Part shown: in pieces, positions 20,457 through 57,852 of the stretch
Numbering within the stretch: position 1 is the first letter of the stretch
How the letters are laid out: each line of letters opens with the position of its first letter
DNA from: Candidatus Methanomethylicia archaeon
GTDB taxonomy: Archaea > Thermoproteota > Methanomethylicia > Nezhaarchaeales > B40-G2
NCBI GenBank assembly: GCA_029259155.1
Contig: JAPDJI010000014.1
Coordinates: 1 to 64,000 of the forward strand
DNA length: 64,000 nt
Direction of reading: 5' to 3'
The notes under the pieces: model-generated
Told to the model about the DNA's origin: nothing
The model's input: only the letters and a program-made list of their open reading frames with translations
Database searches by the model: none
Position numbers and translations under genes: made by a program

Positions 20457-21593
20457 TTGGATCTTAGCGAGACCATCTTTAAACGGTTTAGGGAGCGTAT
20501 TCGTGCTGAAGTCAAACATCTCTTCACGATCCCTATAATCTTCAGTTTGGGCTCAGGTGGTGGTAGGATATTATCGAATATCAATGTTAGTAAGATAGGA
20601 GCTATCAAGGTTGCTATTAACTCCAGCATTCGTGACCTTAGACAGATAGAGGAACGTGTAGACCTTCCCGTTCCCTGCGGTAATGGTGGAGGTTCAGGGA
20701 TGAGGCCTGAGAAGGGAAGAGAGGATTACTTAGAGGTGGCTGAAAGCATACCATACATGATAGAGAAAGCTTGTGAAGTCTATGGCTGCGAAGAACCTGA
20801 TTTGATAGTGACCATTGCCAGCGTTGGGCATGGTTTTGGCAGCGGGTCTTTGCCTGAACACGTAAAGGTGGTTAAGGAAAACTTTCCCAACGCGGTTCAG
20901 CTAGTGTTCACGGTGACGCCTTTCTACTTTGAAGGGGATGCACCACTCGTTAGGGCTTACCGTAGCTTGAGAGAAGCTGTCAAACACACAACGGTATTTC
21001 CTCTCTCCAACCAAATAGCTAGTCTTAAGATGAGTATTGATCCTCAGAAGATAAGGCTGACCGATGTATACCATGTTGTTAACTCTAGGATAGCTGAGAT
21101 TCTTAACACCCTTTTTGAGGCCCTGACCGCATCTGAAGGAGTTAGGATGGGTATGGATAAGAGCGATTTGAGGAATATGATGCAAGGAGAAATAGGAGCT
21201 ATAGGCATGGCCAGATACTACTCCCTCGCTGGTATAACAGTTGATAAAGTGCTTCAGGATATGGCTTCATCTATCTATGCTAGGCTGACAGTTAGGACTG
21301 AAGGGGCTTATGGTACATATATCATAGACTCTAATGAACAAGTCCCTCTAGCACTATTGAATGAACTTAGCCGCCAGCTAATATTAAAATGGGCTTTTAG
21401 AACCCAGTACCTTAAACCCTTAGTGATTGAGCGGGAGAGGGAAGGTGTTTCCATTTTCACCATCATGACCAACATAGTATTGAGCAAGCAAGTAGAACGT
21501 GAGCTTCATAGTTTGATTTTCGGTTTACAGGCAGGGGAATACTGGACGAAGTCCTTTGCTAGCAAGATTAAGAAGCTGTTCTTCAGGAAGTGA
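20457..21593 (+). CDS. Divergent FtsZ/tubulin-superfamily GTPase
   Basis: T1 GSGGGRI, AINS, GGGSGMRPEKG, signature SVGHGFGSG, TPFYFEG, T7-like GMDKSDL. Confidence 0.85.
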   Translation: MDLSETIFKRFRERIRAEVKHLFTIPIIFSLGSGGGRILSNINVSKIGAIKVAINSSIRDLRQIEERVDLPVPCGNGGGSGMRPEKGREDYLEVAESIPYMIEKACEVYGCEEPDLIVTIASVGHGFGSGSLPEHVKVVKENFPNAVQLVFTVTPFYFEGDAPLVRAYRSLREAVKHTTVFPLSNQIASLKMSIDPQKIRLTDVYHVVNSRIAEILNTLFEALTASEGVRMGMDKSDLRNMMQGEIGAIGMARYYSLAGITVDKVLQDMASSIYARLTVRTEGAYGTYIIDSNEQVPLALLNELSRQLILKWAFRTQYLKPLVIEREREGVSIFTIMTNIVLSKQVERELHSLIFGLQAGEYWTKSFASKIKKLFFRK

Positions 21594-21698: not shown

Positions 21699-22247
21699 CT
21701 ACTCGTCGTAAGCTCCTAGATCTTGCTGACATCTATGGTGGCAACCTTGCTCAAGCTCCAACCTTCTAAAAAGCTCTTTAAAATCCTCCTCAAGCCTACT
21801 TAAAGCAGCCCTAACGGGCTTAGAAAGGCTCGCCTTAAAGGTATACGTTAAGCGTTTAGGCTGAATACCTATAAGCAGAAACTCTGAGTTGATGGATTCT
21901 TTAATGTAGGTGGCCAATAGTCTGAGAGAAGGTTTATGGGTATCAAGCGTTAAACCTGCAAGCTCGTCCTCACTATAGAGCTCTATGCTTCCAGGGGGTT
22001 TTCCTGCCTCTACAGCATCTACCACAACTACATGGCTTGGCTTAAACCTCCTAATACTTCCTGTATAGTTCTCAGGGTTCGATCCACAATCTAGAACCAA
22101 TACCCAGCTTGGCTTAAACTTCCTAACTCTCCTAGCGAAGAGAGGACCTACGGCGTCGTCCCCCCTTAAAGGATTGCCAACTCCAAGCAACACTACCTTG
22201 CGTGCCCCTCGTAACCTTCCGACTAACCTATCTAAGAGTGAGGCCAC
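21699..22247 (-). CDS. hycI: Hydrogenase maturation endopeptidase
   Basis: GVGNPLRGDDAVG, PEN, VDA, DTH, GIQP. Confidence 0.9.
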   Translation of the reverse strand: MASLLDRLVGRLRGARKVVLLGVGNPLRGDDAVGPLFARRVRKFKPSWVLVLDCGSNPENYTGSIRRFKPSHVVVVDAVEAGKPPGSIELYSEDELAGLTLDTHKPSLRLLATYIKESINSEFLLIGIQPKRLTYTFKASLSKPVRAALSRLEEDFKELFRRLELEQGCHHRCQQDLGAYDE

Positions 22248-22741: not shown

Positions 22742-23158
22742 TTATCGTAGTTTTTCAATAGCTTTTACCACGGCGCTTAATATTGCTTCAGGTTTAGGTG
22801 GGCAGCCAGCTACATAGACGTCTACAGGTATTACTTTATCTACAGGGCCAGCCACGGCGTAGCTTCCATCAAACACGTCTCCTGACACTGCGCAGTTACC
22901 TACCGCTACCACTATTTTAGGGTCAGGTACCTGCTCATAGACGCGACGTAACCTATCTTTAATCTGTAACGTCACTACCCCTGTCACGAGTAGTATATCA
23001 GCATGTCTAGGCGTACCCTTAAGGAGTGCACCAAACCTCTCAGCGTCGTAGAGGGGCGTTAGCGCAGCTACAACCTCTATATCACAGCCGTTACATCCAC
23101 CACAGGGGAAGTGCATGATCCATGGAGACTTCTTCCTAGCCCATGTAGAAAGATTCAT
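22742..23158 (-). CDS. Group 4 [NiFe] hydrogenase small subunit (EchC/HycG/NuoB-like)
   Basis: GGCNGCDIE, PRHAD, AVGNC, GCPPKPE. Confidence 0.93.
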   Translation of the reverse strand: MNLSTWARKKSPWIMHFPCGGCNGCDIEVVAALTPLYDAERFGALLKGTPRHADILLVTGVVTLQIKDRLRRVYEQVPDPKIVVAVGNCAVSGDVFDGSYAVAGPVDKVIPVDVYVAGCPPKPEAILSAVVKAIEKLR

Positions 23159-23164
23159 TTACGC

Positions 23165-23719
23165 TCACCCCATTTTTAACATAAACTTAGAGGCTTCCTT
23201 CAACGCTTCAGGTCTGGATCGGCATGGAGGACAAAGGGAGATGAGCTTACGGTACTCTTCGAGCGAAGCCCCCCGCTTATTTATCGACTCTTCCACTAGC
23301 TCAACTATCTTAGATAGTTGCCTTGACGTAGTAAAGTAGCTGCCACAGGAAGCACAGGCAGCTAATTCAAGCTCTAATTTATCTTCAGCCTCTTCCTTGT
23401 TATAGGTCACTATCACATACTCTCTAGATAGCTTGATGGCCTCCCAAGGACAGGTGTCTTCGCATCTACCGCAGAAGGCACAGTGTCCATGCCACACCCT
23501 TAAGACCCGCGTGGAGCCTTGATCCACCACGGTTATGGCTTTAGCCGGGCAAACTTGGCTGCATGCACCGCAACCTATGCATTTATCGCGGTCGTAGAGA
23601 GGCTTTCCTCTATAACCTTCAGCCGGGGGTATTTCCTTATACGGGTAAGGCACTGTCGATGGCTTGAGGAAGCCTTTAAGGCTCTCCAACATGGTTCTTA
23701 GGTTTACCAAATTAACCAC
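23165..23719 (-). CDS. 2x[4Fe-4S] subunit (HycF/EchF/NuoI-like)
   Basis: CIGCGACSQVCP and CAFCGRCEDTCP plus HycF-type CASC..CPPC. Confidence 0.9.
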   Translation of the reverse strand: MVNLVNLRTMLESLKGFLKPSTVPYPYKEIPPAEGYRGKPLYDRDKCIGCGACSQVCPAKAITVVDQGSTRVLRVWHGHCAFCGRCEDTCPWEAIKLSREYVIVTYNKEEAEDKLELELAACASCGSYFTTSRQLSKIVELVEESINKRGASLEEYRKLISLCPPCRSRPEALKEASKFMLKMG

Positions 23720-24639
23720 CCCGTGGAGGCTCTAATTAAATCTATCAAGGCTAGGGCTAAGCCCCAGGCCAAGAGGAATTTAAATGCTTGATCAACTCTT
23801 AGCCTAGTGCTCTGTGAATCTACGTAGGAGACTATGAACACTATTACGACGCATAACGCTAAGAAGCAGGCTACGTCTACGAACGGTATCCCTGTGAAAC
23901 GCCCTCCCGCGAAGAATAGGTCTACGGCTATGGCTGGAAGAACTATCCACCTGAACACATTGCCGAGCTCAAAGAGCCCTAGTAGGCTTCCTGAGTAATC
24001 TGTCAACGGTCCCGCTACGATCTCTACTTCGGCATCGGGTATATCAAAGGGTTTACGCCCAAGCTTGAGGACAAGAGCTATGAAGAAAGCTACCGCAGCG
24101 AACGGATAGCTAAACAGGAAAGGTGTGCCGCTCTGAGCTGCTATGATGCTGGCCATACTTAACCCCCCGGCTGCCTTAACTAAAGCTATGGCAGAGACTA
24201 CGAAAGGTATCTCCGAGGCGACTAGTAGGGTGAGCTCTCTGCTAGAACCTATAGCTCCGTAGGGGTTGCCTGAACTGGAGCCTGCTATGATAATGGATAC
24301 GCCAGGGATGGCGAGCGCGATGAGCACTACCAGCACGTCTCCTGTTACGCTTAGAGGGGCAGCTACTCCTAGGGGAGTTAGTGCAAGTGCGGTTAGATAT
24401 CCTGCTAAAGCTAGTAGGGGTGCTATTGTAAACCATGGTCTACTAGCAGCACTAGGCATTATGGTTTTCTTTGAAAATAGCTTAACGATGTCGGCGAGAG
24501 GCTGAATGATAGGTGGCCCTATCCTACACTGGAAGCGTGCCCTCAGTTTTCTGAAGAGCCAGTAGAATATCCAGCCAAAGATGAAGGCCAGAGCGAACTG
24601 GCAGGCTACTAACCCTGCTTGAAGTAGATAGTTGCTCAT
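23704..24639 (-). CDS. Membrane subunit HycD/EchB/NuoH-like
   Basis: RKLRARFQCRIGPP..QPLADIVKL, RKPFD..AEVEIVAG. Confidence 0.93.
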   Translation of the reverse strand: MSNYLLQAGLVACQFALAFIFGWIFYWLFRKLRARFQCRIGPPIIQPLADIVKLFSKKTIMPSAASRPWFTIAPLLALAGYLTALALTPLGVAAPLSVTGDVLVVLIALAIPGVSIIIAGSSSGNPYGAIGSSRELTLLVASEIPFVVSAIALVKAAGGLSMASIIAAQSGTPFLFSYPFAAVAFFIALVLKLGRKPFDIPDAEVEIVAGPLTDYSGSLLGLFELGNVFRWIVLPAIAVDLFFAGGRFTGIPFVDVACFLALCVVIVFIVSYVDSQSTRLRVDQAFKFLLAWGLALALIDLIRASTGWLIW

Positions 24640-25799
24640 AACATCACCCTCCTCCTGGCTAAGTCCTCTAAGGTTACATGTTTCACGGACCCATTCTTCA
24701 CATTAACCACTTCTACCCTGTCGGTGCAGGCTATGCATGGATCGATGCTGGCGAAGATTATGGGGGCGTCGGCTATATTATAGCCTATTAACATGACTGG
24801 CACGCTATGGTTATTCGCTACGGAGGGCGTCCTTATCCTCACTCTTTCAGGTATGTTTGTGCCGTTGCTACGCATATAGTAGAAGAGCTCTCCTCTAGGT
24901 GCTTCAACCCGGCCGAAAACTTCCTTGCCCTTAACAGGCTCTTTAATCTCCTCCGCCATGATAGGGCCTTCAGGTATATCCTTAAGTATCTGCTTGATCA
25001 TCTTAATGGACTCGAAGATCTCCATAAGCCTCACCAAGGTCTTAGCTAGCACGTCTCCTTGATCAAACACGGGTACAGACCATTCTAGTTTATCGTAGTT
25101 AGCGTATGGGTCATCTTTGCGCACATCTATGTCTATACCTGAGCCCCTCGCCGTAGGCCCTACGACACATAGTTTCTTGGCATCCTCTCTGGTTAAGACG
25201 CCTACCTCTGCTACCCTAGCCCTTATCATGCGGTCATTGACCACGGTCTCCTTTAATCTCTCAGCTGCCCGCTCAATCTCGACTAGCTGGGCTTCTACAA
25301 ACTTAGCTAGCTTGGGGGTTAAGTCTCGCCTAACCCCTCCGATAGTGGGGTAGGCGTAGTTGACACGTTTCCCTGTCACGGCTTCGAGCACCCTCATCAC
25401 TACCTCGCGGTCTCTCCACGCATGCATGAAGGCAGTATCAAACCCTATCAGGTGGAGGGCTACGCCGAACCATAGAAAGTGGCTATGAAGCCTCTCCAAC
25501 TCTGCCACTAGGGCTCTAAGATACTTGGCTCTCTCAGGGGGCTCCACGTCTAGTAGGTCCTCGATGGTCTGAGTGCAGGCGGTAGCATGGGCGTCGCTGC
25601 AGATTCCACATACACGTTCACATAGGAAGATTACTTGGTGAAAAGTTCTCCTGGAAGCTAGCCACTCTATACCTCGATGGAAGTAGCCTGTCTTAAGGTC
25701 AGCGCCTACGACGCGTTCACCTTCGACCTCCAGCCTTATGAAGAGGCTCTCCTTTAAGGCTGGGTGGAAGGGTCCTATAGGTATGCTACACGTGCTCAT
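24636..25799 (-). CDS. Group 4 [NiFe] hydrogenase large subunit (EchE/HycE-like)
   Basis: GPFHP, HRGIE, L1 ERVCGIC, EAPRGE, L2 DPCIACTDR followed by a cleavable C-terminal extension. Confidence 0.95.
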   Translation of the reverse strand: MSTCSIPIGPFHPALKESLFIRLEVEGERVVGADLKTGYFHRGIEWLASRRTFHQVIFLCERVCGICSDAHATACTQTIEDLLDVEPPERAKYLRALVAELERLHSHFLWFGVALHLIGFDTAFMHAWRDREVVMRVLEAVTGKRVNYAYPTIGGVRRDLTPKLAKFVEAQLVEIERAAERLKETVVNDRMIRARVAEVGVLTREDAKKLCVVGPTARGSGIDIDVRKDDPYANYDKLEWSVPVFDQGDVLAKTLVRLMEIFESIKMIKQILKDIPEGPIMAEEIKEPVKGKEVFGRVEAPRGELFYYMRSNGTNIPERVRIRTPSVANNHSVPVMLIGYNIADAPIIFASIDPCIACTDRVEVVNVKNGSVKHVTLEDLARRRVML

Positions 25800-25803
25800 C
25801 TAG

Positions 25804-26685
25804 TCATCCCACCCTCTCAACGAGCTTGGTTAAAGGTATTCGGTGAAGGTCTAAGCCCACCTCCTCTGGCTTGTAGCCGAAGGAGAGGGCTAGGAGCTCA
25901 GATAGGTAAGCTACGGGTATGTTAAACTCGAGACTTGTCTTAGATTTAAGGTCGGCCTGCCCCACCTCGAACTGTAGATAGCAGGTGGGACACACCACAG
26001 CTATTAAGTCAGCACCAGCTTCACTCACAGATTCAAGCTTCATCCTTAACGTCTCAGTTAAGGATAGCTCTTCATCGAAGCTTCTCTGAGGGAAGCCGCA
26101 GCAAAGTCTTTCAAGCTTATAGTCCACGACTTCAGCACCTATAGCCTTAACCAGCTCTTTAAAGGCCTCAGCTTTGAAGTACCAGTCTTCAGTCTTCTTT
26201 GACCTATAGAGGTGGCATCCTGGATGGACAGCCACCTTGATGCCTGTCAGCGGCTTAACCACAGCCTGCTTAATGCGATCTAATCCTTGCTCGTAGAGAG
26301 CTTCGGTGAGGTGTTTGACTTCCACGGTACCCTGATACTTCTTGCCTATCTTCGATAACTCCTTATTTACCTTCTCCTTAGCCTCAGGGTTTTCCTTTAA
26401 AAACTCGTTTGCCTCGAAGAGGGTTTCATAGCAACCGTTACACAAGGTCAGCACGGGAAGACCTAGGGCTTCAGCTATGGTAATGTTTCTGGCCGCCATC
26501 GTCAACCATAGCTCACGGTCCAGCAGCCCTGTGTAGAAAGGCTCAGGACAACATGAAGTGCCCTCCATGTCTCGGTAGGGCACTCCAAGCTTTTCCAATA
26601 CCTTGCGCGTAGAGGCTTCTATGTTAGAGAATCGGGTTTGAATCCAGCAGCTCCAAAACATGGCGTAGCCGGTCAACACAACCAC
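25804..26685 (-). CDS. hdrB: Heterodisulfide reductase subunit B-like protein
   Basis: Two CCG domains: SC, SCCP, AARN, CNGC, HPGCH, CCG, CPTCYLQF. Confidence 0.9.
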   Translation of the reverse strand: MVVLTGYAMFWSCWIQTRFSNIEASTRKVLEKLGVPYRDMEGTSCCPEPFYTGLLDRELWLTMAARNITIAEALGLPVLTLCNGCYETLFEANEFLKENPEAKEKVNKELSKIGKKYQGTVEVKHLTEALYEQGLDRIKQAVVKPLTGIKVAVHPGCHLYRSKKTEDWYFKAEAFKELVKAIGAEVVDYKLERLCCGFPQRSFDEELSLTETLRMKLESVSEAGADLIAVVCPTCYLQFEVGQADLKSKTSLEFNIPVAYLSELLALSFGYKPEEVGLDLHRIPLTKLVERVG

Positions 26686-26686
26686 C

Positions 26687-27352
26687 TCAATACCTCAACT
26701 TCTTACGTCCCCAGTCGAACTTCACCTTCTCGTCGAACTTGAAGTCCTTCATCAACTTCTGCACTTCAGTTAACGACGCAGGGTCGACAGCAGTACATTT
26801 AACAGCTTCAGGAAGACCTAGCTTAACGCGCTGCCTCTTAGCCGCGAAGGTCAAGGGGAAGCGCAGCCCCGTCGTCAACACCCCCTCTATCCCTGGCTTC
26901 TGAGTATCCGTCACAGGACCTTTCATAGGTCCTCTAAGCGGCTTAAGCTCCTCAGGCGCCTCAAAGGGTAGGGATATGTGACGTGGATCTGGATGTCCCT
27001 CAAACCGGATCCCAAACATGTCTTGTACTTCCCTCTCTATCATCCCCGCCCCGGGTATGATGGGGGTGATGGAGTCTACCGTTGGCTTCTCCTTGGGCAC
27101 CTTGAACTTGAGGTTCACGTAACTCCTCCCTATGGTCATATGGTAAATGAGCTCGAAATCTACTCCTAGGTCTACAGCTGAGATTGTGCAAAGCCTAGCG
27201 TTCTTCTCGTTGAAAAGCCACTCTACCATTTCCCTTAAGCAGTAGGGCTCTATGTATACTACGTACCTAGTCTCCCTGGCTTCTTGCACTTCGTGGACAA
27301 CATCCTTAAACTTGTTCTTCAGCTCCTCAACAACCTCCTTCATCACCATCAC
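26687..27352 (-). CDS. NuoC/EchD-like subunit with C-terminal HdrC-tail domain
   Basis: ISAVD..ELIYH..VDSITP..EREVQDMFGIRFEGHP; last ~77 aa resemble the HdrC C-terminus. Confidence 0.85.
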   Translation of the reverse strand: MMVMKEVVEELKNKFKDVVHEVQEARETRYVVYIEPYCLREMVEWLFNEKNARLCTISAVDLGVDFELIYHMTIGRSYVNLKFKVPKEKPTVDSITPIIPGAGMIEREVQDMFGIRFEGHPDPRHISLPFEAPEELKPLRGPMKGPVTDTQKPGIEGVLTTGLRFPLTFAAKRQRVKLGLPEAVKCTAVDPASLTEVQKLMKDFKFDEKVKFDWGRKKLRY

Positions 27353-29895
27353 CCCGCTAATGAACTAGCCAACCTCCAAGCCCAGTTGAATAAGGGGTCA
27401 GGAATCATGCCCAAAACCACGCAGAGAGCAACTAAGACCAGGGCTATAGCGGCCAGACCTGTGGCTTCACGTATCTTCTCGGCTTCAGGTATGGGCTCAC
27501 CCAAGAATGCTCCGCTGAATCCCTTGACCATAGCGGCCAGCAAGGTTACCGTGGAGAAAGCTACGATCAAGACTAAGTCCCACCTACCTGCCTCTGCTAA
27601 GGCTACGTAAAGCTGGTATTCGCTCCACCAAGTGTTGAAGGGAGGTATGCAGGCGAGGGCTAGGCTGCTAGCTATGAAGGCTAACGCGATCATGGGCATA
27701 CGTCCAGCTAGCCCTTTGAAGCTATCCAGCCTTGTGGTTCCAGCTTTACTGGCCACCGCGGCTATGCAGTGCAGCATAGCTCATGAAGCTGGGATGATGT
27801 TAACCAAGTGGATCAACCCGCCAGCTAGGCAGTGTACATAGCCTTCTACTCCTTTAGCTAGGTCGGCTGCACCTAGCTCCATGACCACGTCGCCGAGCTG
27901 AACCACGACCGCGGCTACGAAGAGTCTCTTTAGATCTCGGTGGTGAGCTGCCACCAGCGCACCGATGAGCATCATAGCTGTGCCCACGTAGAGGATAGGG
28001 GTTAGGAGACCCGTGGCTAAGGCTCCAGTTAAGGAGAGGAAGGCTATGCCTGCTAGGACGATTGCCCTAGTCTCTATGAACCTAGCTAACCCGAAGTAAG
28101 CTAGGTCAAATCCACCACGCTTCATAAAGTTGTGGAGAGGTGCTATGAGTGAGGCAAAGTTAAGGTAGAAGGGGCCAGGCCCTACCTTGGCTTTCTCTAA
28201 GCTTAGGTAGGGCTCCTCGACCTCGCCCCCTGTGAAGGGCATGGCGGCGTAGGTGGTGACTACCATGGGTTTAAGGGAGGCATGGTATATAGCGTAGCCT
28301 ACGAGCATAGAGATTAAGATGATGAGGGTGAGGCCCAGGGCTTCATAGAACCCTATCGGGGTAGCGAAGCCTAAGAGGAAGTAGCTGGGGACCCCAGCTC
28401 CCACTATTAAGGCCACAGCCGGGTTGATTAGGGTATCGAGCAACAATCTTGGCGCCACGCCGAGGACCACGCAGAGAGCAGCTAGGATGACGATGGGTAT
28501 CTGCATGGTGAGAGGTACTTCTTTAATCCCCTCCAACCTACTAGGCCTAACCCCGAAGAAGGCTGAGTGAAGCATCTTTAGCACGGAAGCGAGGGTTATT
28601 GCGCTGCCGAGGAGGGCTATTGCACAGTATAGCGCATACATTGCGCCTACAAGGCCCCCTTCAGCTAAGGCCCTCTGGATAGCGCCCTCATAGATGAGTA
28701 GCTTGCTAGCAAAGCCGTTAAGCGGCGGGATTCCTGCCAAGGCTAGGCCGCCGATGATCATGCAGGCAGCGGTCACAGGCATGTTACGTGCTAAGCCACC
28801 CATCTCGCTCAGCTTCTTGGTGCCAGTTACGTAGATTAGGCAGCCAGCACCGAGGAAGAGGAGGCCTTTGAAGATGGCGTGGTTAAAGAAGTGGAAGAGG
28901 CCTCCAGCTATGCCCACTGCGGTACCTATTCCTAAGCCGAGGAACATGTAGCCTATCTGAGCGGCGGTGTGGTAGGCTAGGAGCCTTTTGACGTCGTCTT
29001 GTAGCCAAGCCCCTGCAGAACATATGATTAAGGTGAAGGCCCCCACCGTGGCCATGGCAATATCCATGGGAGTCTTAAGCGGTGTTAAAGCAGCTAGCTG
29101 AGCAGATCTAGCCATTAAGTAAACCCCGGCCTTAACCATGGCTGCTGCGTGGAGGAAGGCGGTCACGGCAGAGGGAGCTACCGTAGCGTCTGGGAGCCAG
29201 TTATGGACAGGGAATTGCACCGACTTAGCCATGGAGGCGACGAGGAAGAGAGGCATCGCTGCGGCTAAAGCCAGTAGGGGGGCAGCTCCGTTTAAGCTGG
29301 GTAGGTCTAGGCTAGTCTTCCCCTGCGCCAGTAGGACTAAGATGCCCAAGATGATGCCTGCGCCGCAAGCATGCGTCATTATCAAGGCCTTCATGGAAGC
29401 CCTGGAGCTCTCAACCTTACGTATGTAGAACCCTATGAGGCCATAGGAACATAGCCCCACAAGCTCCCAGAATACGAAGAGTAATAACAGGTTCCCCGCT
29501 GAGAAGAGACCTATCATGGATCCTTGAAAGAGCAGCATCAGTGCAAAGTACCTGGTGTGCCCCTCAGCTTCATGAGCCATGTCGGCTACCGAGTATAGGA
29601 TCGCCATGAAGCCGAAGAAGCCGGACATCACTACAAACAACATCGATAAGGCGTCGCCGTAGAGCAGAAGGCCTATGTTTATTCCCTGAGCTCTAAGAAA
29701 ACCAGCTTCTATGGCTATTGGTCCTAGCTGTAAGACTGAGGCTGTGGCCCATAGCGAGGCTAGGAAGGTTAGAAGCGTGAAGAGGGTTGCAAGGTAGGCC
29801 TTAACTTTATAGGAAGCTTTATGGAGTATCGCAACTAAGAAGCTTCCCGCTAAAGGTAGGGTGACCGAGAGTATGAATGCCAGCTGAGCATTCAT
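27349..29895 (-). CDS. Antiporter-like (NuoL/MrpA/HyfB) membrane subunit interrupted by one in-frame TGA at 27781-27783
   Basis: FWELVG, KSVQFPVHNWLPDA, HAAAMVKAG, DVKRLLAYHT, NHAIFKG, GIPPLNGFASK; ORFs 27781..29895 and 27349..27777 share a frame (IIPAS*AMLHC). Confidence 0.8.
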
Positions 29896-30356
29896 GGTCT
29901 TACCCCACTAATCTTAGATCTTAACTCTAAGGCTATCTCTCTTGGGTAAGCCCTTAAGGCTCCCGAGGAGCAGACCTTTACGCATTCAGGGTCGCCATCA
30001 CATAGATCACACTTAACCGACACTCTAAGCTCTTCATTGAAAGCGGGGACTGATAGTGGGCATGCATAGTTGCAGGTTTTACACCCTATACATTTCACTT
30101 GATTTATCCTAACTATGCCTGCCTCATCCTTCCAAATAGCTTCACTTAGACAGGCAGCCATGCAGAGAGGTTCTTCGCAGTGTAGGCAGTAAATAGCTTG
30201 GAACGTGCCTGTAGCTGGGTCGAAGACGTGTTTTATGTATGACTTAGCATACCCTGCTTCCCCATAGTGCTTATAGCTACAGGCAACCTCGCAAGCCCTA
30301 CATCCAGTGCATTTGGATGGGTCAAACACCAGCTTGAGCTCCACCACCTTCCTCAT
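29892..30356 (-). CDS. 4x[4Fe-4S] electron-transfer subunit (HycB/CooF-like)
   Basis: CTGCRACEVAC, CLHCEEPLCMAAC, CIGCKTCNYACP, KCDLCDGDPECVKVC. Confidence 0.9.
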   Translation of the reverse strand: MRKVVELKLVFDPSKCTGCRACEVACSYKHYGEAGYAKSYIKHVFDPATGTFQAIYCLHCEEPLCMAACLSEAIWKDEAGIVRINQVKCIGCKTCNYACPLSVPAFNEELRVSVKCDLCDGDPECVKVCSSGALRAYPREIALELRSKISGVRP

Positions 30357-30506: not shown

Positions 30507-31847
30507 TTAAGCTTTCTTTAAGGCAGCCTCCGCTGCTAGCGTTATGGCGCTCCAAGTATCGGCTAAAGGAGGCGTATAGCAGGTATCAGCTTTAGCTAGC
30601 TCATAAGCAGTCATACCCTTCTGGATAGCTAACGACAGTGCGTCTACGCGAGGCGCTACACCTTCACCGCCTAGGATTTGAGCGCCGATGAGCTTCATGG
30701 AAGCCTTCTCGAAGATCAGCTTCACCCTTATGTCCTTAGCTCCAGGATAGTACTCCGCCCTTGTCTTCCAAGGTATAGAGCCGACAACAACCTCCATGCC
30801 TGCTTGCCTGGCTTGCCACTCAGTCAGGCCTGTGAAGCCCACTTCAACGTCGAATAGCTTTGAAACCGCTGAACCTAATACCCCTGGGAAGGTAGCATAG
30901 CCGCCTGCAGCGTTTATGCCTGCCACCTTACCCTGCTTCACTGCCGTGGTTCCTAGCTGACAAAGTACGGGCTGCATGGTGACTAAGTGTACGCTCTCCA
31001 CGCAGTCACCTGCTGCATAGATGTCTTCTACCGTAGTCTTCATCCTGGCGTCTACCTTAATCCCTCCAGTTACACCTAGCTTACATCCAGCCTTGACCGC
31101 TAGGTCGGTGTTGGCTCTGACGCCTATCGCCATGACTACAAGGTCTGCGTCAACCTGTTCGCCTCCAGCAGCTACTGCCTTAACGTGGTCATCGCCGAGT
31201 ATCTCATCTGCCTTCGTGTTTAACATCAACTTGACGCCGTGAGCAGATATCTTGGTTTGAAGCAGCTTAGCCATGTCCTCATCTAGGATAGGTCTAAGAA
31301 CTTGGTGTAGAGCTTCAATGACAGTTACCTTTACTCCTCTCTTCACCAACCCTTCAGCGGCTTCCAGCCCTACTAAGCCGGCGCCTATGACCACGGCGCT
31401 TTTAGCCTTCAAGGCTTCTTCAAGAATAGCTGAGGCATCAGGTATTGTTCTAAGCGGGTACACACCTTTCTTATCGTAGCCCTTAATACGGGGGACCACT
31501 GCTCTGGCTCCTGTGGTTAAGATTAAGGAGTCGTACTCGAAGGTTTCCTCCTTTCCATCAGGCCCTACTGCTTTAACTACCTTAGCGCTATGGTCTATCT
31601 CTGTGACGGTGGTCTTGAGATGTAAGTCTATCTTCATCATTTTGTAGAACTCTGACTTATAGATGATGATATGGTCAAACCCTTCGATGTCGCCGCCTAT
31701 CACGAAAGGTAGGGCACAGCGTGAGTAGGCTGGTTTATCCTCAGCATCGATAACTTTTACCTCAACTTCTCTGCTGGTCCGTCTAGCATTGAGCGCAGCA
31801 TCTAATCCAGCAGCTCCACCTCCGATCACAACTACTCGTTTAGCCAT
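30507..31847 (-). CDS. FAD-dependent pyridine nucleotide-disulfide oxidoreductase (CoA-disulfide reductase/NADH oxidase family)
   Basis: GGGAAG, single redox Cys YSRCALP, GAGLVGLE, YAAGDC, DTCYTPP. Confidence 0.9.
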   Translation of the reverse strand: MAKRVVVIGGGAAGLDAALNARRTSREVEVKVIDAEDKPAYSRCALPFVIGGDIEGFDHIIIYKSEFYKMMKIDLHLKTTVTEIDHSAKVVKAVGPDGKEETFEYDSLILTTGARAVVPRIKGYDKKGVYPLRTIPDASAILEEALKAKSAVVIGAGLVGLEAAEGLVKRGVKVTVIEALHQVLRPILDEDMAKLLQTKISAHGVKLMLNTKADEILGDDHVKAVAAGGEQVDADLVVMAIGVRANTDLAVKAGCKLGVTGGIKVDARMKTTVEDIYAAGDCVESVHLVTMQPVLCQLGTTAVKQGKVAGINAAGGYATFPGVLGSAVSKLFDVEVGFTGLTEWQARQAGMEVVVGSIPWKTRAEYYPGAKDIRVKLIFEKASMKLIGAQILGGEGVAPRVDALSLAIQKGMTAYELAKADTCYTPPLADTWSAITLAAEAALKKA

Positions 31848-31871: not shown

Positions 31872-32279
31872 CTACATAATGGTCTTAAGCCACCCAGCCG
31901 CCTTATCGGCGGTCATTAAATTCTTTAGCTCTTCATCGAGGTTGCTAGCCTCTATTACCACCAGCCAGCCCTTACCGTAGGGGTCCTCGTTAAGTACTGA
32001 AGGGTTGCTTTGAACCTCAGCGTTAACCTCCTTAATGGTTCCGGATATCGGTGATATTAGGTCTACGGCTGCTTTTAACGACTCGGCGCTGCCGAAGGCG
32101 TCGCCAACGTTCACGGTAGAGCCGGGATCTAGCAGGCTTATGTTTATGACCTGTTTCAGGTTCTTCTGTGCATAGTCTGTTATGCCAACTCTAGCCTTGC
32201 CGTCCTCCACCTTAACCCACACGTGGTTCTCTGAGTAATACAGTCCTTCGGGAACCTCGTATTCTCCCACCGTAACCAA
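31872..32279 (-). CDS. gcvH: Lipoyl carrier protein (glycine cleavage H protein family)
   Basis: HVWV, VGITDYAQ, ESLKA lipoyl-Lys, PISG, NEDPYGKGW. Confidence 0.93.
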   Translation of the reverse strand: MVTVGEYEVPEGLYYSENHVWVKVEDGKARVGITDYAQKNLKQVINISLLDPGSTVNVGDAFGSAESLKAAVDLISPISGTIKEVNAEVQSNPSVLNEDPYGKGWLVVIEASNLDEELKNLMTADKAAGWLKTIM

Positions 32280-32539: not shown

Positions 32540-33661
32540 TTGATGTCGGAGGAGCTAAGAAGAGAGCTATCCTCCTGTACAGATTGTAGGATGTGTGACA
32601 ATGTCTGTCCCTTCTACCTCGCTACGGGAGACGAGTCCATAGGTGCCTGGAACAAGGTTAAAGTTGCTCAAGCTGTGCTAGGGGGCGATAGGCAGGTCAG
32701 CGATGTATTGAGAGAACTGTACCTATGTACCTGCTGCGGAACCTGTGAGCTTGCCTGCCCCTTTAATATCCCGATATCTGAGGCAGTTAGAGCTTTAAGG
32801 AGCTTAGCTGTCAAGGAGCGTTGCGCTCCGGAACCTGTCGTTAAGCTGTGTGAAGGGATAATCAACCAGGGATCGATGACTGGTGAGGGGAAGGAGTTCT
32901 GGAGGAGCTGGATCCCCACTGAGGTGAATTTCCCTAGTGAAGCTGAGTACCTCTACCTTGTAGGTTGCATGATCCCCTTTAGGCTCCGTGATGTAGGCAG
33001 GGCTACGGTGGATATCTTGAAGGCAGCTGGCGTGGACTTCACAATTTTAGGTGAGGATGAGAGGTGTTGCGGCCTCCTCCTCGTGGATCACGGCTTCCTA
33101 GAAGAAGCTAAGACGGTCGCGGAGAGAAACCTATCGAGCGTAGAAGGGAGGAAGCCTAGCGTCGTTCTGATGGCGTGCGCCGCCTGCTACTATACGTACA
33201 AGCATGTTTACCAGAGGATCTATAGGAAACCTGAGTTTGAGGTGATACACGTAGCGGAGGCCTTAGCCGACCTCATCGATCATGGGAGGATAAGCTTCAA
33301 GAAGCGGATTGATGAGAAGGTGGCCTTCCTTGACCCCTGCCACTTCGTGAAGGTCTCTGGTAAATACGAGATTCCCAGGAAGGTGATCGAGAACATTCCC
33401 GGGCTGAAGTTAATTGAGTTCCCGAGAAGCAGGGCTGAAGCGCTTTGTTGCGGCGCACCCGGAGGTATTAGGCTGGTGTCTAGGGATGTAGCGTTCTCCG
33501 CGGCTGGAATGATAGTTAAGGAGGCCCTCAAGCTGGAGGTTTCAAGGATCGTAACCTCCTGTCCGCTCTGCATGTATCAGCTTTCATGGGCTGCTGAAAA
33601 GCTGGGGGCGGGGAGGTTAAAGGTAACTGACCTTCCCTTGTTAGTGAAGGAAGCTCTCTGA
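32540..33661 (+). CDS. HdrD-like Fe-S oxidoreductase (2x[4Fe-4S] plus two CCG domains)
   Basis: CTDCRMCDNVCP, CTCCGTCELACP, GC, ERCCG, CAAC, DPCH, CCGAPGG, SCPLC. Confidence 0.85.
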   Translation: MMSEELRRELSSCTDCRMCDNVCPFYLATGDESIGAWNKVKVAQAVLGGDRQVSDVLRELYLCTCCGTCELACPFNIPISEAVRALRSLAVKERCAPEPVVKLCEGIINQGSMTGEGKEFWRSWIPTEVNFPSEAEYLYLVGCMIPFRLRDVGRATVDILKAAGVDFTILGEDERCCGLLLVDHGFLEEAKTVAERNLSSVEGRKPSVVLMACAACYYTYKHVYQRIYRKPEFEVIHVAEALADLIDHGRISFKKRIDEKVAFLDPCHFVKVSGKYEIPRKVIENIPGLKLIEFPRSRAEALCCGAPGGIRLVSRDVAFSAAGMIVKEALKLEVSRIVTSCPLCMYQLSWAAEKLGAGRLKVTDLPLLVKEAL

Positions 33662-33730: not shown

Positions 33731-34765
33731 ATGGTAGACGTGAGACTGGTCGACGAGATGAGGCACTTGAAGCCTAGGTTAGTCAGGGTTTCCTACGGCT
33801 CAGCGGTAGTCTTAGGCTTAGCTAGGGGATGGCTTAAGACTAAACCGACCACCAGCTATCTCTTAACTTACTTAGAAGAGCGCTGCCTAGCTAACTGCGG
33901 TTTCTGTCCTCAAGCTAAAGATAGTAATGCTAGCCTAGACCTCCTATCCAGGGTGGAGTGGCCTCCTTACCCTGCTCAAGAAGTAGTGGAGAGGGCCGTG
34001 AACGCTTTAAGGCGAGGCTTATTGAAGAGAGCCTGCGTCCAAGTTGTTAACAGGCCTGAGGGCTTAAATCAGGCTTTATGGCTCGTGGAACATGTAAGCC
34101 TAGGAGGAGAATTACCTGTATCAGTTTCTATACCTCCGTTAGGGCGTAGTGGGCTTGAAGCCTTTAAACGGACAGGGGCAGGCAGAGTCTCCATAGCGTT
34201 AGATGCTGCTAATCGCAGGGTCTTCGACGAGGTTAAAGGACTTAATGCTGGTGGGCCCTACACTTGGGATGGACACTGGAATGCGCTTAGAAAAGCCCTC
34301 GAGGTTTTTGGCCCTGGAAACGTGACGACCCACCTTATTGTGGGTCTTGGGGAAACTGAGAGAGACCTAGCACGCGTCATCGATAAGCTATTATCGATAA
34401 AGGTACTCCCAGCCCTCTTCGCCTTCACTCCTATACCTGGTACTAGGCTTGAAGCGTTACCTCAACCTGAAGTAGCAAGCTATCGCCGCATTCAGCTTGT
34501 GAGACACTTACTGGTAAAGGGTATAGTTTCTCTTAAGGACCTGGAGTTTAACCATGTAGGGAGGCTTGTTCGCATAAAAGCTTCCAGCGAGGAGGTAATG
34601 AGAGAGATCGAGAGCGGTGAACCTTTCGAGACTTCAGGGTGTCCTGGATGTAATAGACCTTTTTACAACGAGAAACCTGGAGGGCCTCTCTATAATTACC
34701 CAAGACCTTTAAGCAGAAAAGAGGTGGAGGAGGCCTTAAGCCTGCTGAGAGACGTGGTAGCCTGA
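33731..34765 (+). CDS. Radical SAM protein, archaeal-type lipoyl synthase subunit LipS2-like
   Basis: CLANCGFC radical SAM motif and C-terminal TSGCPGCNRP; lipoate ligase and gcvH neighbours. Confidence 0.75.
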   Translation: MVDVRLVDEMRHLKPRLVRVSYGSAVVLGLARGWLKTKPTTSYLLTYLEERCLANCGFCPQAKDSNASLDLLSRVEWPPYPAQEVVERAVNALRRGLLKRACVQVVNRPEGLNQALWLVEHVSLGGELPVSVSIPPLGRSGLEAFKRTGAGRVSIALDAANRRVFDEVKGLNAGGPYTWDGHWNALRKALEVFGPGNVTTHLIVGLGETERDLARVIDKLLSIKVLPALFAFTPIPGTRLEALPQPEVASYRRIQLVRHLLVKGIVSLKDLEFNHVGRLVRIKASSEEVMREIESGEPFETSGCPGCNRPFYNEKPGGPLYNYPRPLSRKEVEEALSLLRDVVA

Positions 34766-34874: not shown

Positions 34875-35324
34875 ATGAGGGTAGACAAGATGCAACCTGA
34901 ATTAACTTTCCATGTACAGGTAGAGTGGGATGGCTCTACTGGAGGTGAGGCTAAACTCTCAGTACAGCCTCCCTTAAGGTTTGATACCCCAAGGGACTTC
35001 GGAGGCTCTGAAGCTGGCTATTGCCCAGAAGAGCTTTTCTTAGCGTCGTTGGCTGCTTGCTTAACCACAACCTTTGCTTATCTAAGGCCTAAGCTAGGCT
35101 TAGAGGCTTCCTCGCTGAGGATAAATGCCACTGACCGCGTCGAGTTTAGAGACGGAGGCTACATGGTGACCGAGGCCTGGATGAAGGTGAAGCTGGAAGT
35201 TAGGAAAGGTCAGGCTGAGTTAGCGAGACAATGCGTGGAACTTGCTGCTGAGTACTGCCATGTAACTAGGTCAATAAGGAGATGTATACCTGTTCACTTA
35301 GAAGTAGAGGTGGTAGAGGTTTAA
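34875..35324 (+). CDS. OsmC/Ohr-family protein
   Basis: DTPRDFGG..PEELFLASLAAC..YCHV two-Cys pattern. Confidence 0.85.
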   Translation: MRVDKMQPELTFHVQVEWDGSTGGEAKLSVQPPLRFDTPRDFGGSEAGYCPEELFLASLAACLTTTFAYLRPKLGLEASSLRINATDRVEFRDGGYMVTEAWMKVKLEVRKGQAELARQCVELAAEYCHVTRSIRRCIPVHLEVEVVEV

Positions 35325-35448: not shown

Positions 35449-36225
35449 CTGACTGAGGAGTGGAGGCTTCTGAAGACAGGTAGTGGTGATGCCTACTGGA
35501 ACATGGCTGTAGACGAAGCTATCTTAACAGCGAGAACTGAAGGCAAAGTGCCGAATACCTTGCGCCTATACACTTGGAAGCCCTCTGCAGTATCAATAGG
35601 CTTTTTCCAGAGCTTACACCACGAAGTGGACTTGGAGGAATGTCGTAATCTAGGAGTAGACGTAGTTAGACGCATAACTGGTGGAGGGGCAGTGTTTCAT
35701 GACAGTGACGGTGAAGTGACCTATAGCGTAGTGGTGGCGGAGGCTGACTTGAAACGTATAACTCCTCACTCCACTATACAGGAATCCTATGAAGCTCTAT
35801 GTAAAGGTTTGCTGGAAGGGTTGAAAGAGCTAGCTATAGCAGCTGAGTTTAAACCAATAAACGATATACTCGTTGCTGGACGTAAGATCTCAGGCAGTGC
35901 TCAGACTAGGCGTAGGGGCATTATTCTTCAGCATGGCACTTTACTGCTTAAAAGCGATATAAGAACCATGTTCAGGGTGTTGAAGGTCTCCAAGGAAAAA
36001 ATAAGCGACAAGCTGATCAAGGAGGTGGAGGAGAGAGTTACCAATATATATCGTGAAACTGGCCGTGAACTAGCTGTCGAGGAGGTTATAGGTGCTCTCG
36101 TCAAAGGTTTTCAACGCGCATTAGGGGTCAAATTAAAGGAGGGCGAGCTGTCCCCATATGAGCTTAGCTTAGCTGAAGAGTTTAAGCATAGATATGCCTC
36201 AAAGGAGTGGCTTGAGCTTAGGTGA
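35449..36225 (+). CDS. lplA: Lipoate-protein ligase catalytic subunit
   Basis: WRLL..NMAVDEAIL, RRITGGGAVFHD, RKISGSAQ, QHGTLL; homology extends upstream of ATG 35503 to a CTG at 35449. Confidence 0.9.
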   Translation: MTEEWRLLKTGSGDAYWNMAVDEAILTARTEGKVPNTLRLYTWKPSAVSIGFFQSLHHEVDLEECRNLGVDVVRRITGGGAVFHDSDGEVTYSVVVAEADLKRITPHSTIQESYEALCKGLLEGLKELAIAAEFKPINDILVAGRKISGSAQTRRRGIILQHGTLLLKSDIRTMFRVLKVSKEKISDKLIKEVEERVTNIYRETGRELAVEEVIGALVKGFQRALGVKLKEGELSPYELSLAEEFKHRYASKEWLELR

Positions 36226-52104: not shown

Positions 52105-53617
52105 GCTGGAGTTAAAGAGACGTGAAGTGGATGGGCTTGTCGCCGTCTTCGCTAAAGCCCTTGACGTAGCTCAGAGGATTGCGAGGTGCGAAGAGATACC
52201 AGCTCTCCTCGAAGGCTTCTCTGCCTCTTTCATAGAGCCTGGCGCCTCTGGCGCAATTACCCGAGGTAAGTTTGAGATCCTTCCGACTGGGAGGAACTTT
52301 TACGCCGTAGACCCGCGTATGCTTCCAACGCGGGCAGCATGGGAGGTCGGTGTTAAGACCGCCCATAAAATGCTTAATTACTATTTGGAAAAACATGGCA
52401 GGTACCCCGAGAGCGTGGGCCACGTCCTATGGAGCATTGACGCTTACAAGGCTGATGGAGAGCAGCTTGCCCAGATACTTTACCTCTTGGGCGTGAGGCC
52501 GGTGTGGGGACCTGATGGGGCTGTGCAGGGCTTAGAGGTCATTCCTCTCGACGAGCTTAAGCGCCCTAGGATAGACTGCGTGACGCGTATCAGCGGCATA
52601 GTTCGCGATACGCTCCCAAACTATCCCTACCTGATAGATGACGCAGTTGAGAAGGTCGTTGTGCTTGACGAGCCGCTGGATCTGAACTTCGTCAGGAAGC
52701 ACTACATCGAGTACGTGAGGGAGCTGCTCCGGCTGGGAAGAAGCGTCGAGGACGCTAGGGTAGCAGCTAGATACCGTGTCTTCTGCTCGCCTCCAGGGAG
52801 CTACGGCGCTGGTGTGAACTACGCAGTTGAGGCGTCAGCTTGGGAGGAAGATGAGGACTTAGCGAAGACTTGGGTTCAGTGGGCTGGCTACGCTTATGGC
52901 AAGTCCTCTCACGGCGCCAAGGCTCACGACGTACTCGTACTCACGCTCAAAGATGTTGACGCTGTGTCAAGGAGCCACCCGAGCGATGAACACGACCTCT
53001 TAGCCTGCTGCTGCTACTTCGCCTACCATGGCGGCTTCTTCAACTCGGCCAAGGCGATTTCGGGGAAGGACATCGATGCCATACACGTTGATACCCGCGA
53101 CCTCTCGAACTTAGACGTTAGAGACGTGAAGGTTGAGATCGAGAGGGTGGTGCGCGCCAAACTCCTCAATCCCGCGTGGATCGAGGAAATGAAGAAGCAC
53201 GGCTATAGAGGTGCCAACGAGTTCTCGAAGAAGATACTACACTTATACGGCTGGTCAGCGACCACTAAGCTAGTTGAGGATTGGGTCTTTGACGAAATAG
53301 CGAAAACCTATGCCCTTAATGAGGAGATGCGGAAGTGGTTCGAGGAACACAATGTCTGGTCTCTCGAGGAAATAGTTAGACGCTTGGTGGAGGCTGCGGA
53401 GCGCAATCTCTGGAGGCCACCCAACGAGCTACTTGAACAGCTGAGGGAGGTTTACGCTGAGCTAGAAGGAATACTCGAGGAGACTGCAGTCGGCGAAGGA
53501 GATAGGCAAGGAGGGTCAATCAACATCATCACGGCTGAAGCGGTCGACCACTGGAAGAATTCCATCTTGGAGGTGGAAGCTATATGGAGGAGAGTGAAGC
53601 AAGAAGCAGGAAGCTGA
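52097..53617 (+). CDS. cobN: CobN/BchH chelatase, C-terminal part
   Basis: LPTGRNFYAVDP, LKRPRID, ISGIVRD, YGAGV, LLNPAWIEEMKKHGYRGA. Confidence 0.88.
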   Translation: MAKLELKRREVDGLVAVFAKALDVAQRIARCEEIPALLEGFSASFIEPGASGAITRGKFEILPTGRNFYAVDPRMLPTRAAWEVGVKTAHKMLNYYLEKHGRYPESVGHVLWSIDAYKADGEQLAQILYLLGVRPVWGPDGAVQGLEVIPLDELKRPRIDCVTRISGIVRDTLPNYPYLIDDAVEKVVVLDEPLDLNFVRKHYIEYVRELLRLGRSVEDARVAARYRVFCSPPGSYGAGVNYAVEASAWEEDEDLAKTWVQWAGYAYGKSSHGAKAHDVLVLTLKDVDAVSRSHPSDEHDLLACCCYFAYHGGFFNSAKAISGKDIDAIHVDTRDLSNLDVRDVKVEIERVVRAKLLNPAWIEEMKKHGYRGANEFSKKILHLYGWSATTKLVEDWVFDEIAKTYALNEEMRKWFEEHNVWSLEEIVRRLVEAAERNLWRPPNELLEQLREVYAELEGILEETAVGEGDRQGGSINIITAEAVDHWKNSILEVEAIWRRVKQEAGS

Positions 53618-56485: not shown

Positions 56486-56613
56486 TGCAAGTTTTTTCGT
56501 ACTGCTGCCTCATTCAAGACTTGTTGCTTTATCATGTCACATCGGCACCGCCGATATGTTAGTTGCCGGCATCGCTATGAAGGCTTTCAGTGACTTGAGT
56601 TTCCTGCTAATCG

Positions 56614-56758
56614 CATGGTTAAAAGAGCCTTATATTATAGGCTTAAGCTACCTTGTCCTGAAGCTAGTTTAAGGATGATGGTAGCTGAACTCTCTCTCAA
56701 GGAAGTATTGCCATAGCCTCAACCACTCGAGAGTTTTACCCATGACTGAAGGAGCTTC
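56614..56758 (+). repeat. 145-bp direct repeat, right copy
   Basis: Identical by eye to 49445-49589. Confidence 0.95.
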
Positions 56759-57685: not shown

Positions 57686-57781
57686 TGGTAGCCTGCCGAC
57701 CCGCCGCGTATTGCTTGATGAAGTTCCATGGGAAAAGTCCATGAGCGAGAATATTATATTCTGCCTCGCTTAGTTTACCGA

Positions 57782-57843
57782 GGGAGCGATGAGGAAGGCA
57801 GGTATTGATGAGGGGTGATGAGTGACACCAGAGCCGAGCTCCC
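57782..57843 (+). ncRNA. C/D box sRNA (2'-O-methylation guide)
   Basis: Terminal stem GGGAGC/GCTCCC; C GCGATGA, 12-nt guide, D' TTGA, C' GTGATGA, 12-nt guide, D CCGA; TTATAT about 25 nt upstream. Confidence 0.85.
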
Positions 57844-57852
57844 ACTTTTAAG

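Follow-up and report, generated by a model that had tools for sequence, protein, structure and literature searches.

We report here a protein of 221 amino acids that joins a NuoC domain to a cluster-free arm homologous to the C-terminal part of HdrC. It is encoded by an open reading frame (ORF; 26687-27352, minus strand) in 64,000 nt of DNA from a Candidatus Methanomethylicia archaeon (GTDB lineage Archaea; Thermoproteota; Methanomethylicia; Nezhaarchaeales; B40-G2; assembly GCA_029259155.1, contig JAPDJI010000014.1, positions 1-64,000 of the forward strand), the whole of which we call the window, and it lies within a hydrogenase operon, directly before hdrB. We regard it as probable that this protein serves as NuoC in an Ehd-like, HdrB-coupled group-4 [NiFe] hydrogenase, with the cluster-free HdrC arm at its C-terminus tethering HdrB. 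The arm most likely ties the disulfide-reducing HdrB to a membrane-bound hydrogenase belonging to a class that has so far been described through genome annotation only.

The only Pfam family in the protein is PF00329 (Complex1_30kDa), which scores 89.3 bits against a gathering cut-off of 22.5, and the last motif of the NuoC family, KPLRGP (residues 137-142), closes this domain. The tail that follows matches no Pfam family and lacks any Cys cluster motif (its one Cys is not conserved), and Pfam found no Fer4 family anywhere in the protein, meaning that the N-terminal ferredoxin domain of HdrC, with its two [4Fe-4S] motifs, is not present. Compared alone with the PDB, the tail matched four HdrC chains without gaps (8rvu_c, E 4.6e-4; 8rvv_C, 5.7e-4; 9sfi_E, 2e-3; 5odc_C, 6e-3), its residues 6-78 aligning to HdrC 110-182. 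We collected 17 full-length homologues (218-226 aa, covering 98-100% of the query) whose source names are Nezhaarchaeales, Bathyarchaeia/Bathyarchaeota and '[Eubacterium] cellulosolvens'. A tail-only profile of these homologues recovered four HdrC chains at E 1.6e-11, 1.9e-11, 3.2e-9 and 4.2e-8, a fifth HdrC (7bkb_C) at E 0.36, and its top non-HdrC chain at E 1.1, while the full-length profile matched PDB HdrC at E 5.6e-10 to 2.5e-7, positions 142/144-219 corresponding to HdrC 105-183. The NCBIfam model for HdrC, TIGR03290, aligns through its positions 82-143 of 144 to residues 148-209, at E 3.6e-5 (23.8 bits) with the whole protein and 5.6e-6 (26.4 bits) with the tail alone, both scores below its 160-bit cut-off. 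These sequence comparisons confirm a likeness to HdrC far beyond chance, and the alignments show a NuoC domain joined through ~20 linker residues to an arm that is homologous to HdrC ~105-183 and ends in a conserved motif, GFDWxKKKLRY.

A first-pass annotation, made from the letters alone, had described the NuoC domain with a gapless HdrC-like tail free of the [4Fe-4S] motifs, the lack of a separate hdrC in the operon and the start of hdrB one base downstream, and had expected automated annotation to recognize nothing other than NuoC. Each of these observations is confirmed. The GTG start of hdrB lies 1 base past the TGA stop of the 221-aa gene; the operon contains no hdrC, the only other Fer4_8/CCG gene nearby being HdrD-like (Table 1), and two hdrC-hdrB pairs are located on other contigs of the genome, C10 and C5. 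In public databases the homologues are named 'NADH-quinone oxidoreductase subunit C' or 'Ni,Fe-hydrogenase III component G'. The first-pass interpretation, that the tail is an HdrB dock grafted onto a complex I-like subunit, is supported by the profile comparison with HdrC, by a complex model and by a survey across genomes, with both binding and wiring standing as predictions.

An AlphaFold2 model of the 221-aa protein alone has a predicted local distance difference test (pLDDT) value >83 for residues 1-120, a linker at ~125-144 with values <50, and an arm of four short helices (152-161, 169-177, 191-203 and 206-209) of middling confidence. The model thus fits a flexible tether that would fold its end on a partner. 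In a Foldseek search with the full-length model the best match was HycE of Escherichia coli formate hydrogenlyase (FHL; 7z0s_E, E 2e-10), followed by NuoC chains of complex I, with a probability of 1.00; the top 50 held NuoC-type chains only and no HdrC, because the NuoC domain dominates the search and the arm is modelled at low confidence. Within the NuoC domain, D111 (window position 27020), which is invariant in the alignment of 17 sequences, reads E in all four public sequencing runs whose contigs we compared with the window, and this discrepancy is either a strain difference or an assembly error.

The putative partner is an HdrB closely homologous to that of methanogens, matching PDB HdrB chains over its full length at E 1.3e-75 to 2.2e-67. 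All ten Cys of its motifs are invariant across 27 sequences, and two noncubane [4Fe-4S] sites are therefore expected from the sequence. Also invariant are E91 and H158, which by our reading of the alignment correspond to E87 and H154, residues proposed for a proton path in the available part of a 2026 structure paper (PMC13518236). We predicted the complex of arm and HdrB, these two partners only, each from a 27-row alignment, with a procedure that, in calibration, passed 116 of 157 complexes of solved structure and 2 of 215 pairs of mismatched partners. The docking proposed in the first-pass annotation is also predicted by this model: the pair passed with a score of 0.82 (0.83, 0.82 and 0.82 in the separate runs) vs 0.24 for the best of three controls, with 110-124 contacts, a partner pLDDT of 81-82 and at least 81% contact agreement between runs. 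The contacts on HdrB fall at residues 11-66, in the N-terminal CCG domain with cluster ligands C13 and C45, and at 109-115, 201-205 and 275-280, so that the arm is predicted to wrap the N-terminal CCG domain. HdrC residues 105-183 reportedly contact HdrB in the structures solved by Wagner and colleagues in 2017.

To learn how widely this architecture occurs, we scanned one genome per species with the tail profile, which yielded 27 fused loci. The survey agrees with the first-pass annotation, in that fusion and hdrB are adjacent in all 27 and the gene order NuoC(+arm), HdrB, NiFe large subunit is the same throughout. The fused ORF is intact in 26 of these independently assembled loci, the arm being out of frame with NuoC in one (L043); in contigs of the four public runs the 221-aa ORF has no internal indel, apart from a low-depth TCA insertion in X5. 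Most fused loci belong to Bathyarchaeia, with one from Nezhaarchaeales, one from an 88%-identical 'Nitrososphaerota' metagenome-assembled genome (MAG) and four from bacterial MAGs, namely three NC10/Methylomirabilota and one Baltobacteraceae. A HycB-like gene directly precedes the fusion in 25 of the 27; an antiporter gene stands between the two in L019, as in the window, and L017 is cut by a contig end.

Two kinds of fused operon can be told apart. NuoH is present in eight loci (L017-L020, L022, L023, L025 and L043), as it is in the window, and the Nezhaarchaeales locus, L019, repeats the whole neighbourhood of the window, including lplA, lipS2, gcvH and the flavoprotein gene. Fourteen others (L024, L026, L027, L029-L036, L039, L041 and L042) carry a NuoB-HycF fusion, and since the 14-kb loci show no homologue of NuoH or NuoL in the operon, they look soluble. 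This variant, found in Bathyarchaeia and the four bacterial MAGs, looks from its gene content like an H2:disulfide oxidoreductase of soluble type. The other five loci are truncated by the ends of their contigs. In HdrB sequence the bacterial MAGs fall within the Bathyarchaeia, which suggests a transfer of the soluble-looking module between domains.

The arm also occurs by itself. Among 1.84 billion representative proteins, the tail profile found 58 at E <= 1e-3, of which 51 were scanned with Pfam, leaving out seven fragments of 34-64 aa: 15 have PF00329, 11 have the Fer4_8 of HdrC type, 23 have no family and two have unrelated weak matches. Among the 23 family-less proteins, eleven that we read are 90-100 aa long, with M..YPLRK at the start and an arm-like end. 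A model built from these arm-only proteins aligns to residues 134-221 of the window protein and matched in 63 of 401 genomes of its phylum, Thermoproteota, from which we cut out 20 split loci, several of them close kin, meaning that their counts are not independent. In all 20, hdrB is immediately preceded by a free-standing arm ORF (about 92-160 aa), and the large subunit carries the NuoC domain as an N-terminal fusion; a HycB-like gene directly precedes the arm ORF in 18, and gcvH adjoins in seven.

One motif links the two forms. PLR(K/G)P occupies residues 138-142 of the fused proteins, inside the Pfam NuoC match, and stands as YPLRK at the N-terminus of the free-standing ORFs, while in our alignment the NuoC-large-subunit fusions end after '..EWP..' and lack it. 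Pfam at E <= 10 gave no PF00329 match for the YPLRK N-termini of the eleven arm-only proteins, the motif being too short. From this placement of the motif, and because the arm-only model aligns to residues 134-221, we read the free-standing 'mini-HdrC' as the HdrC arm with the closing NuoC motif in front of it. Fission of a window-like protein would leave just such a product, which suggests that the fused form is the intact connector; the mini-HdrC ORFs of Ehd/Ehe-type operons would then be fission products, and the fused form their likely ancestral state.

We also built a tree of 55 HdrB sequences, comprising 28 rows of the fused type, 17 of the 20 split loci (the near-duplicates L068, L073 and L076 were omitted) and 10 other paralogues. 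The 45 hydrogenase-linked HdrBs all group together in a single clade (SH-aLRT 96), within which the split type is itself one clade (support 97). The hydrogenase-linked clade is sister to an HdrB of the same genome encoded on contig C9 (support 96), both being apart from HdrBs beside full HdrC or HdrA genes. The outgroup branches are long, and the tree therefore gives no direction of change.

The C9 locus (56133-59975, covered in part by L011) contains an HdrB-like gene (56133-57005, minus strand) preceded by a 99-aa ORF (57002-57301, minus strand) in which hhalign sees a likeness to the HdrC arm (probability 89.7%, E 1.8e-6). Facing the pair are a gene for a HycB-like ferredoxin and an ORF of 671 aa, which we take, by eye, to be an aldehyde:ferredoxin oxidoreductase. 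This locus may represent a use of the HdrB plus arm module without a hydrogenase.

Several observations weigh against the arm being an HdrC-derived HdrB tether, or against the fused form being its original state. The canonical HdrCs of the same genome, on contigs C10 and C5, are unmatched by the hidden Markov model of the tail at E <= 10. The passing score of the complex prediction may stem from the predictor having memorized HdrBC complexes, which have already been solved, and would then reflect likeness rather than binding. The GFDWxKKKLRY motif (arm residues 73-83; 26690-26722, minus strand), the most conserved part of the arm, lies outside the confident HdrB contacts. The HdrB tree leaves fusion or fission undecided, the fused state needing two changes and a single change being also allowed. 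Lastly, the HdrC residues placed at the HdrB active site in the available part of PMC13518236 (Y81, T79, Y84, E94 and K98) all fall upstream of the part retained here.

These points bear on the alternatives that have to be weighed. It is unlikely, in our judgement, that the arm is no more than an obligatory structural piece of HdrB, shielding or stabilizing its N-terminal noncubane domain, with the fusion to NuoC a neutral joining of adjacent genes and HdrB held on the hydrogenase by the HycB-like protein. Such a role would agree with the 20 of 20 split loci in which the arm is a separate small ORF and HdrB nonetheless remains in the hydrogenase operon, with the probable third arm-like ORF of the genome, which precedes the HdrB-like gene of C9 with no adjoining hydrogenase, and with predicted contacts that take in the cluster ligands C13 and C45. 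However, the free-standing arms keep YPLRK, the last motif of NuoC, which is missing from the NuoC-large-subunit fusions of their own operons, and this suggests a retained contact with NuoC; the fusion, moreover, is kept across Bathyarchaeia, Nezhaarchaeales and the four bacterial MAGs, and the C-terminal KKLRY motif, confined to arms that go with a hydrogenase, is not part of the predicted interface with HdrB. That the HdrC likeness is due to chance or low complexity, or the fusion to an assembly or gene-calling artefact, the tail being then a lineage-specific extension of NuoC unrelated to HdrB, we find hardly credible. The modest E-values of the single sequence (4.6e-4 to 6e-3) and the lack of a Pfam family for the tail could be read that way, but with profiles the values go down to 1e-11 and below E 0.36 only HdrC chains appear, TIGR03290, an independent curated model, matches the same region, and the same ORF is found in 26 of 27 independently assembled loci and in contigs of the four public runs.

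A third alternative concerns what the complex does, and is compatible with the arm as a tether. The CoA-disulfide-reductase (CoADR)-like flavoprotein and the HycB-like ferredoxin could form an NAD(P)H input module similar to PadH/PadI, with HdrB acting on a substrate other than free heterodisulfide and H2 as the product. The best NCBIfam match of the HycB-like protein is indeed PadI (E 1.1e-25) and the flavoprotein matches PadH (E 3.7e-58), yet both scores are far below the cut-offs; and a PNDR (flavoprotein) gene near the module in 8 of the 27 fused loci has to be set against its being missing from the other 19 and present in just 1 of the 20 split loci (L070). The direction of the related Ehe complex is left open in the available text of Kohtz et al. 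(PMC9723716). We consider a reversed direction or a different partner of this kind quite unlikely.

The genes around the 221-aa gene make up one tightly packed operon on the minus strand, between 32279 and 22742, in the order gcvH-like, flavoprotein, HycB-like, NuoL-like, the 221-aa gene, hdrB, [NiFe] large subunit, nuoH-like, hycF-like and nuoB-like (Table 1).

Table 1. Features of the hydrogenase operon and its surroundings in the window
Feature	Position	Strand	Basis
NuoC (30-kDa subunit) domain	26930..27352	-	Residues 1-141; Pfam PF00329 at 32-141, 89.3 bits
Fe-S-free HdrC arm	26690..26929	-	Residues 142-221; PDB HdrC matches and TIGR03290
GcvH-like lipoyl carrier, first operon gene	31872..32279	-	Pfam GCV_H, 126.9 bits
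CoA-disulfide-reductase/NADH-oxidase-like flavoprotein (PNDR)	30507..31847	-	Pfam Pyr_redox_2; TIGR03385 389.7 bits, below 578.8-bit cut-off
HycB-like ferredoxin	29892..30356	-	Pfam Fer4_11 and related; 16 Cys in four cluster motifs
NuoL/Mrp-type antiporter-like subunit	27349..29895	-	Pfam Proton_antipo_M
HdrB, both CCG motifs	25804..26685	-	Pfam CCG x2; TIGR03288 292 bits, below 345-bit cut-off
[NiFe] hydrogenase large subunit, NuoD-like, without NuoC domain	24636..25799	-	Pfam Complex1_49kDa and NiFeSe_Hases
NuoH/HycD-like membrane subunit	23704..24639	-	Pfam NADHdh, 229.7 bits
HycF/NuoI-like subunit, 2x[4Fe-4S]	23165..23719	-	Pfam Fer4 families; NCBIfam NF009053 (formate hydrogenlyase Fe-S subunit) E 1.3e-40
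NuoB/HycG-like small subunit	22742..23158	-	Pfam Oxidored_q6, 114.9 bits
HycI-type hydrogenase maturation protease	21699..22247	-	Pfam HycI
HdrD-like, divergent	32540-33661	+	Fer4_8/CCG (Pfam)
LipS2 lipoyl synthase, divergent	33731-34765	+	NF053743 327.7 bits, above 270-bit cut-off
OsmC-like, divergent	34875-35324	+	Library scan
LplA large subunit, divergent	35503-36225	+	Library scan

The operon carries a full Ehd-like gene set, with NuoB-, NuoH-, HycF- and antiporter-like subunits, hdrB, and a large subunit whose translation shows both metal-site motifs, RVCGICSDAH and DPCIACTDR; operons of this make-up recur in L019 and L017. With these motifs in place and hycI, hypE and hypF near the operon, the hydrogenase looks intact by its gene content. 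We assign it as Ehd-like by the gene content of the operon. In this assembly the antiporter gene appears as two ORFs, 27781-29895 (704 aa) and 27349-27777 (142 aa), split by an in-frame TGA at 27781-27783 (minus strand) where the relatives L019 and L017 have Leu. A broken complex was considered and rejected, because contigs of all four public runs read TTA (Leu) at this position (in X1 the base is four letters from the contig end), and the TGA is probably an assembly error or a rare variant. Elsewhere in the window, a CobN/Mg-chelatase is present as two overlapping ORFs (49732-53617, plus strand; profile positions 2-661 and 677-1088), to be explained by a frameshift or by a split that is natural, and a 378-aa ORF (20457-21593, plus strand) has a weak match to a Tubulin/FtsZ GTPase domain (35.8 bits vs a 33-bit cut-off).

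How the subunits would work together can be proposed from these data. By analogy with FHL, MBH and complex I, the NuoC domain would be seated on the NuoD-like large subunit, and the 221-aa protein would therefore covalently tether HdrB to the hydrogenase module. Electrons would pass from H2 to the [NiFe] site, the NuoB-like cluster, the two HycF clusters, the four clusters of the HycB-like protein and the noncubane pair of HdrB, and on to a disulfide. Four [4Fe-4S] clusters are expected in the HycB-like ferredoxin from its sequence, and this protein would replace the lost ferredoxin domain of HdrC; the exergonic electron transfer would drive ion translocation through the NuoH and NuoL-like subunits. 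The first-pass annotation had likewise proposed HycF- or HycB-like clusters in place of the HdrC wire. The part of that claim that stands is that a four-cluster HycB-like gene accompanies the fusion; the replacement itself we infer from gene order alone.

Compared with HdrC of HdrABC (TIGR03290; 5ODC C, 8RVU c, 8RVV C and 9SFI E), the window protein is homologous without gaps over the C-terminal ~75 residues, and its gene likewise stands directly before hdrB. Its arm is predicted to bind HdrB, but a NuoC domain takes the place of the ferredoxin domain with two [4Fe-4S] clusters. The fused and free-standing arms share a basic end with a terminal Tyr (KKLRY), whereas the end of methanogen HdrC is acidic. 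The operon resembles that of E. coli formate hydrogenlyase (HycB-G; 7Z0S) in its HycF-like and four-cluster HycB-like proteins, its NuoH/NuoL-type subunits and the NuoC fold. FHL has its NuoC domain and large subunit in one chain, an arrangement shared with the split-type loci, while in the window NuoC is separate. Through HycB, FHL is connected to formate dehydrogenase as its redox partner, whose place HdrB would take here.

Membrane-bound group-4 [NiFe] hydrogenases co-located with hdrB and an antiporter subunit (Ehd, Ehe, Ehd-like, Ehg and Drh) are already in print, and the novelty therefore lies in the connector and not in the coupling of HdrB to a hydrogenase. Ehd is said to go back to Borrel and colleagues in 2019 and Drh to Lyu and Lu in 2015, as we know from passages citing them. 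The available text of Kohtz et al. 2022 (PMC9723716) lists as 'HdrB-interacting hydrogenases' Ehd of Methanomethylicia (its reference 15), Ehe of Culexarchaeia with GcvH, Drh of Methanocellales and Ehg of Nezhaarchaeia, includes Bathyarchaeia sequences in an Ehd-like cluster, and takes hydrogenase, HdrBC and antiporter to be what Ehd and Ehe have at their core. Its main text, figures and supplements aside, does not contain the words HdrC, fused or fusion. Passages of PMC12700198 describe an Ehd-like HdrB-associated group-4 hydrogenase in a non-methanogenic family of Nezhaarchaeia, those of PMC6046458 describe Drh, and those of a bioRxiv preprint repeat the wording 'hydrogenase and HdrBC'; throughout the passages of PMC9723716, PMC12700198, PMC6046458 and the preprint, HdrB-coupled group-4 complexes appear solely as genome-based proposals. 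Unlike the 'HdrBC' of these papers, the 'HdrC' of our 20 split loci is a cluster-free ORF of 92-160 aa, and in the window the arm sits on a separate NuoC. A literature search, with ~1.7 million PMC articles and most subscription-journal papers beyond its reach, found no description of a cluster-free HdrC or of an HdrC-NuoC fusion. The connector thus appears undescribed in the searchable literature, within an enzyme class that is known.

The substrate of HdrB can be approached through the neighbouring genes. No match to McrA or GcvT was found in the genome, which is 94% complete. CoM-S-S-CoB is an unlikely substrate here because no McrA was found, and because gcvH, lipS2 and lplA flank the operon in a genome without McrA or GcvT, a lipoyl-GcvH becomes a candidate; it is our leading one, if a speculative one. 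All three GcvH genes of the genome adjoin genes for Hdr-like CCG proteins, and since there is no GcvT, all three look dedicated to Hdr-like systems. Besides the copy in the window, two GcvH-like genes stand on either side of a pair of Hdr-like CCG and ferredoxin genes on contig C21 (6640-9654). A GcvH adjoins the Ehe cluster of Culexarchaeia as well, for which lipoyl-GcvH was suggested in the available text of Kohtz et al. (PMC9723716).

The same association of a GcvH-like carrier, an LplA-type ligase and LipS2 with Hdr-like CCG proteins, here in a genome without GcvT, recalls the sHdr-LbpA system, a lipoate-dependent Hdr-like system of sulfur oxidizers reportedly described by Cao and colleagues in 2018 and Tanabe and colleagues in 2023. 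That system is not known to include a hydrogenase. HdrA, HdrC1B1/HdrC2B2, DsrE and TusA did not turn up among the scanned ORFs of the window, for which no dedicated search was made. One could go further and picture the complex as an ion-translocating H2:lipoyl-protein oxidoreductase, in which HdrB, bolted on by the connector, would reduce the dithiolane of a dedicated lipoyl-GcvH, with NAD(P)+ or a sulfur acceptor receiving these electrons by way of the CoADR-like flavoprotein. Such a role would make protein-bound lipoate a carrier of respiratory electrons in relatives of methanogens that are not themselves methanogenic, and the connector ancestral to every 'HdrC' of the Ehd/Ehe type. As a whole this scheme is tentative and, on balance, doubtful.

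For several archaeal metabolisms, newly cultured or predicted, HdrB-coupled membrane hydrogenases (Ehd, Ehe and Ehd-like) have been put forward as the step that conserves energy. If the 'HdrC' of this class carries no clusters, the electron path as drawn through HdrC cannot be right, and the four-cluster HycB-like protein would therefore have to be the wire, which would correct the drawn path of a much-cited and uncharacterized enzyme class. The fused form offers a concrete architecture, in which two specified subunits would be tied by 80 residues through a specified linker. Lipoate genes surround the operon, in a genome that yielded neither Mcr nor the glycine cleavage T protein, and they point to a candidate substrate for this complex.

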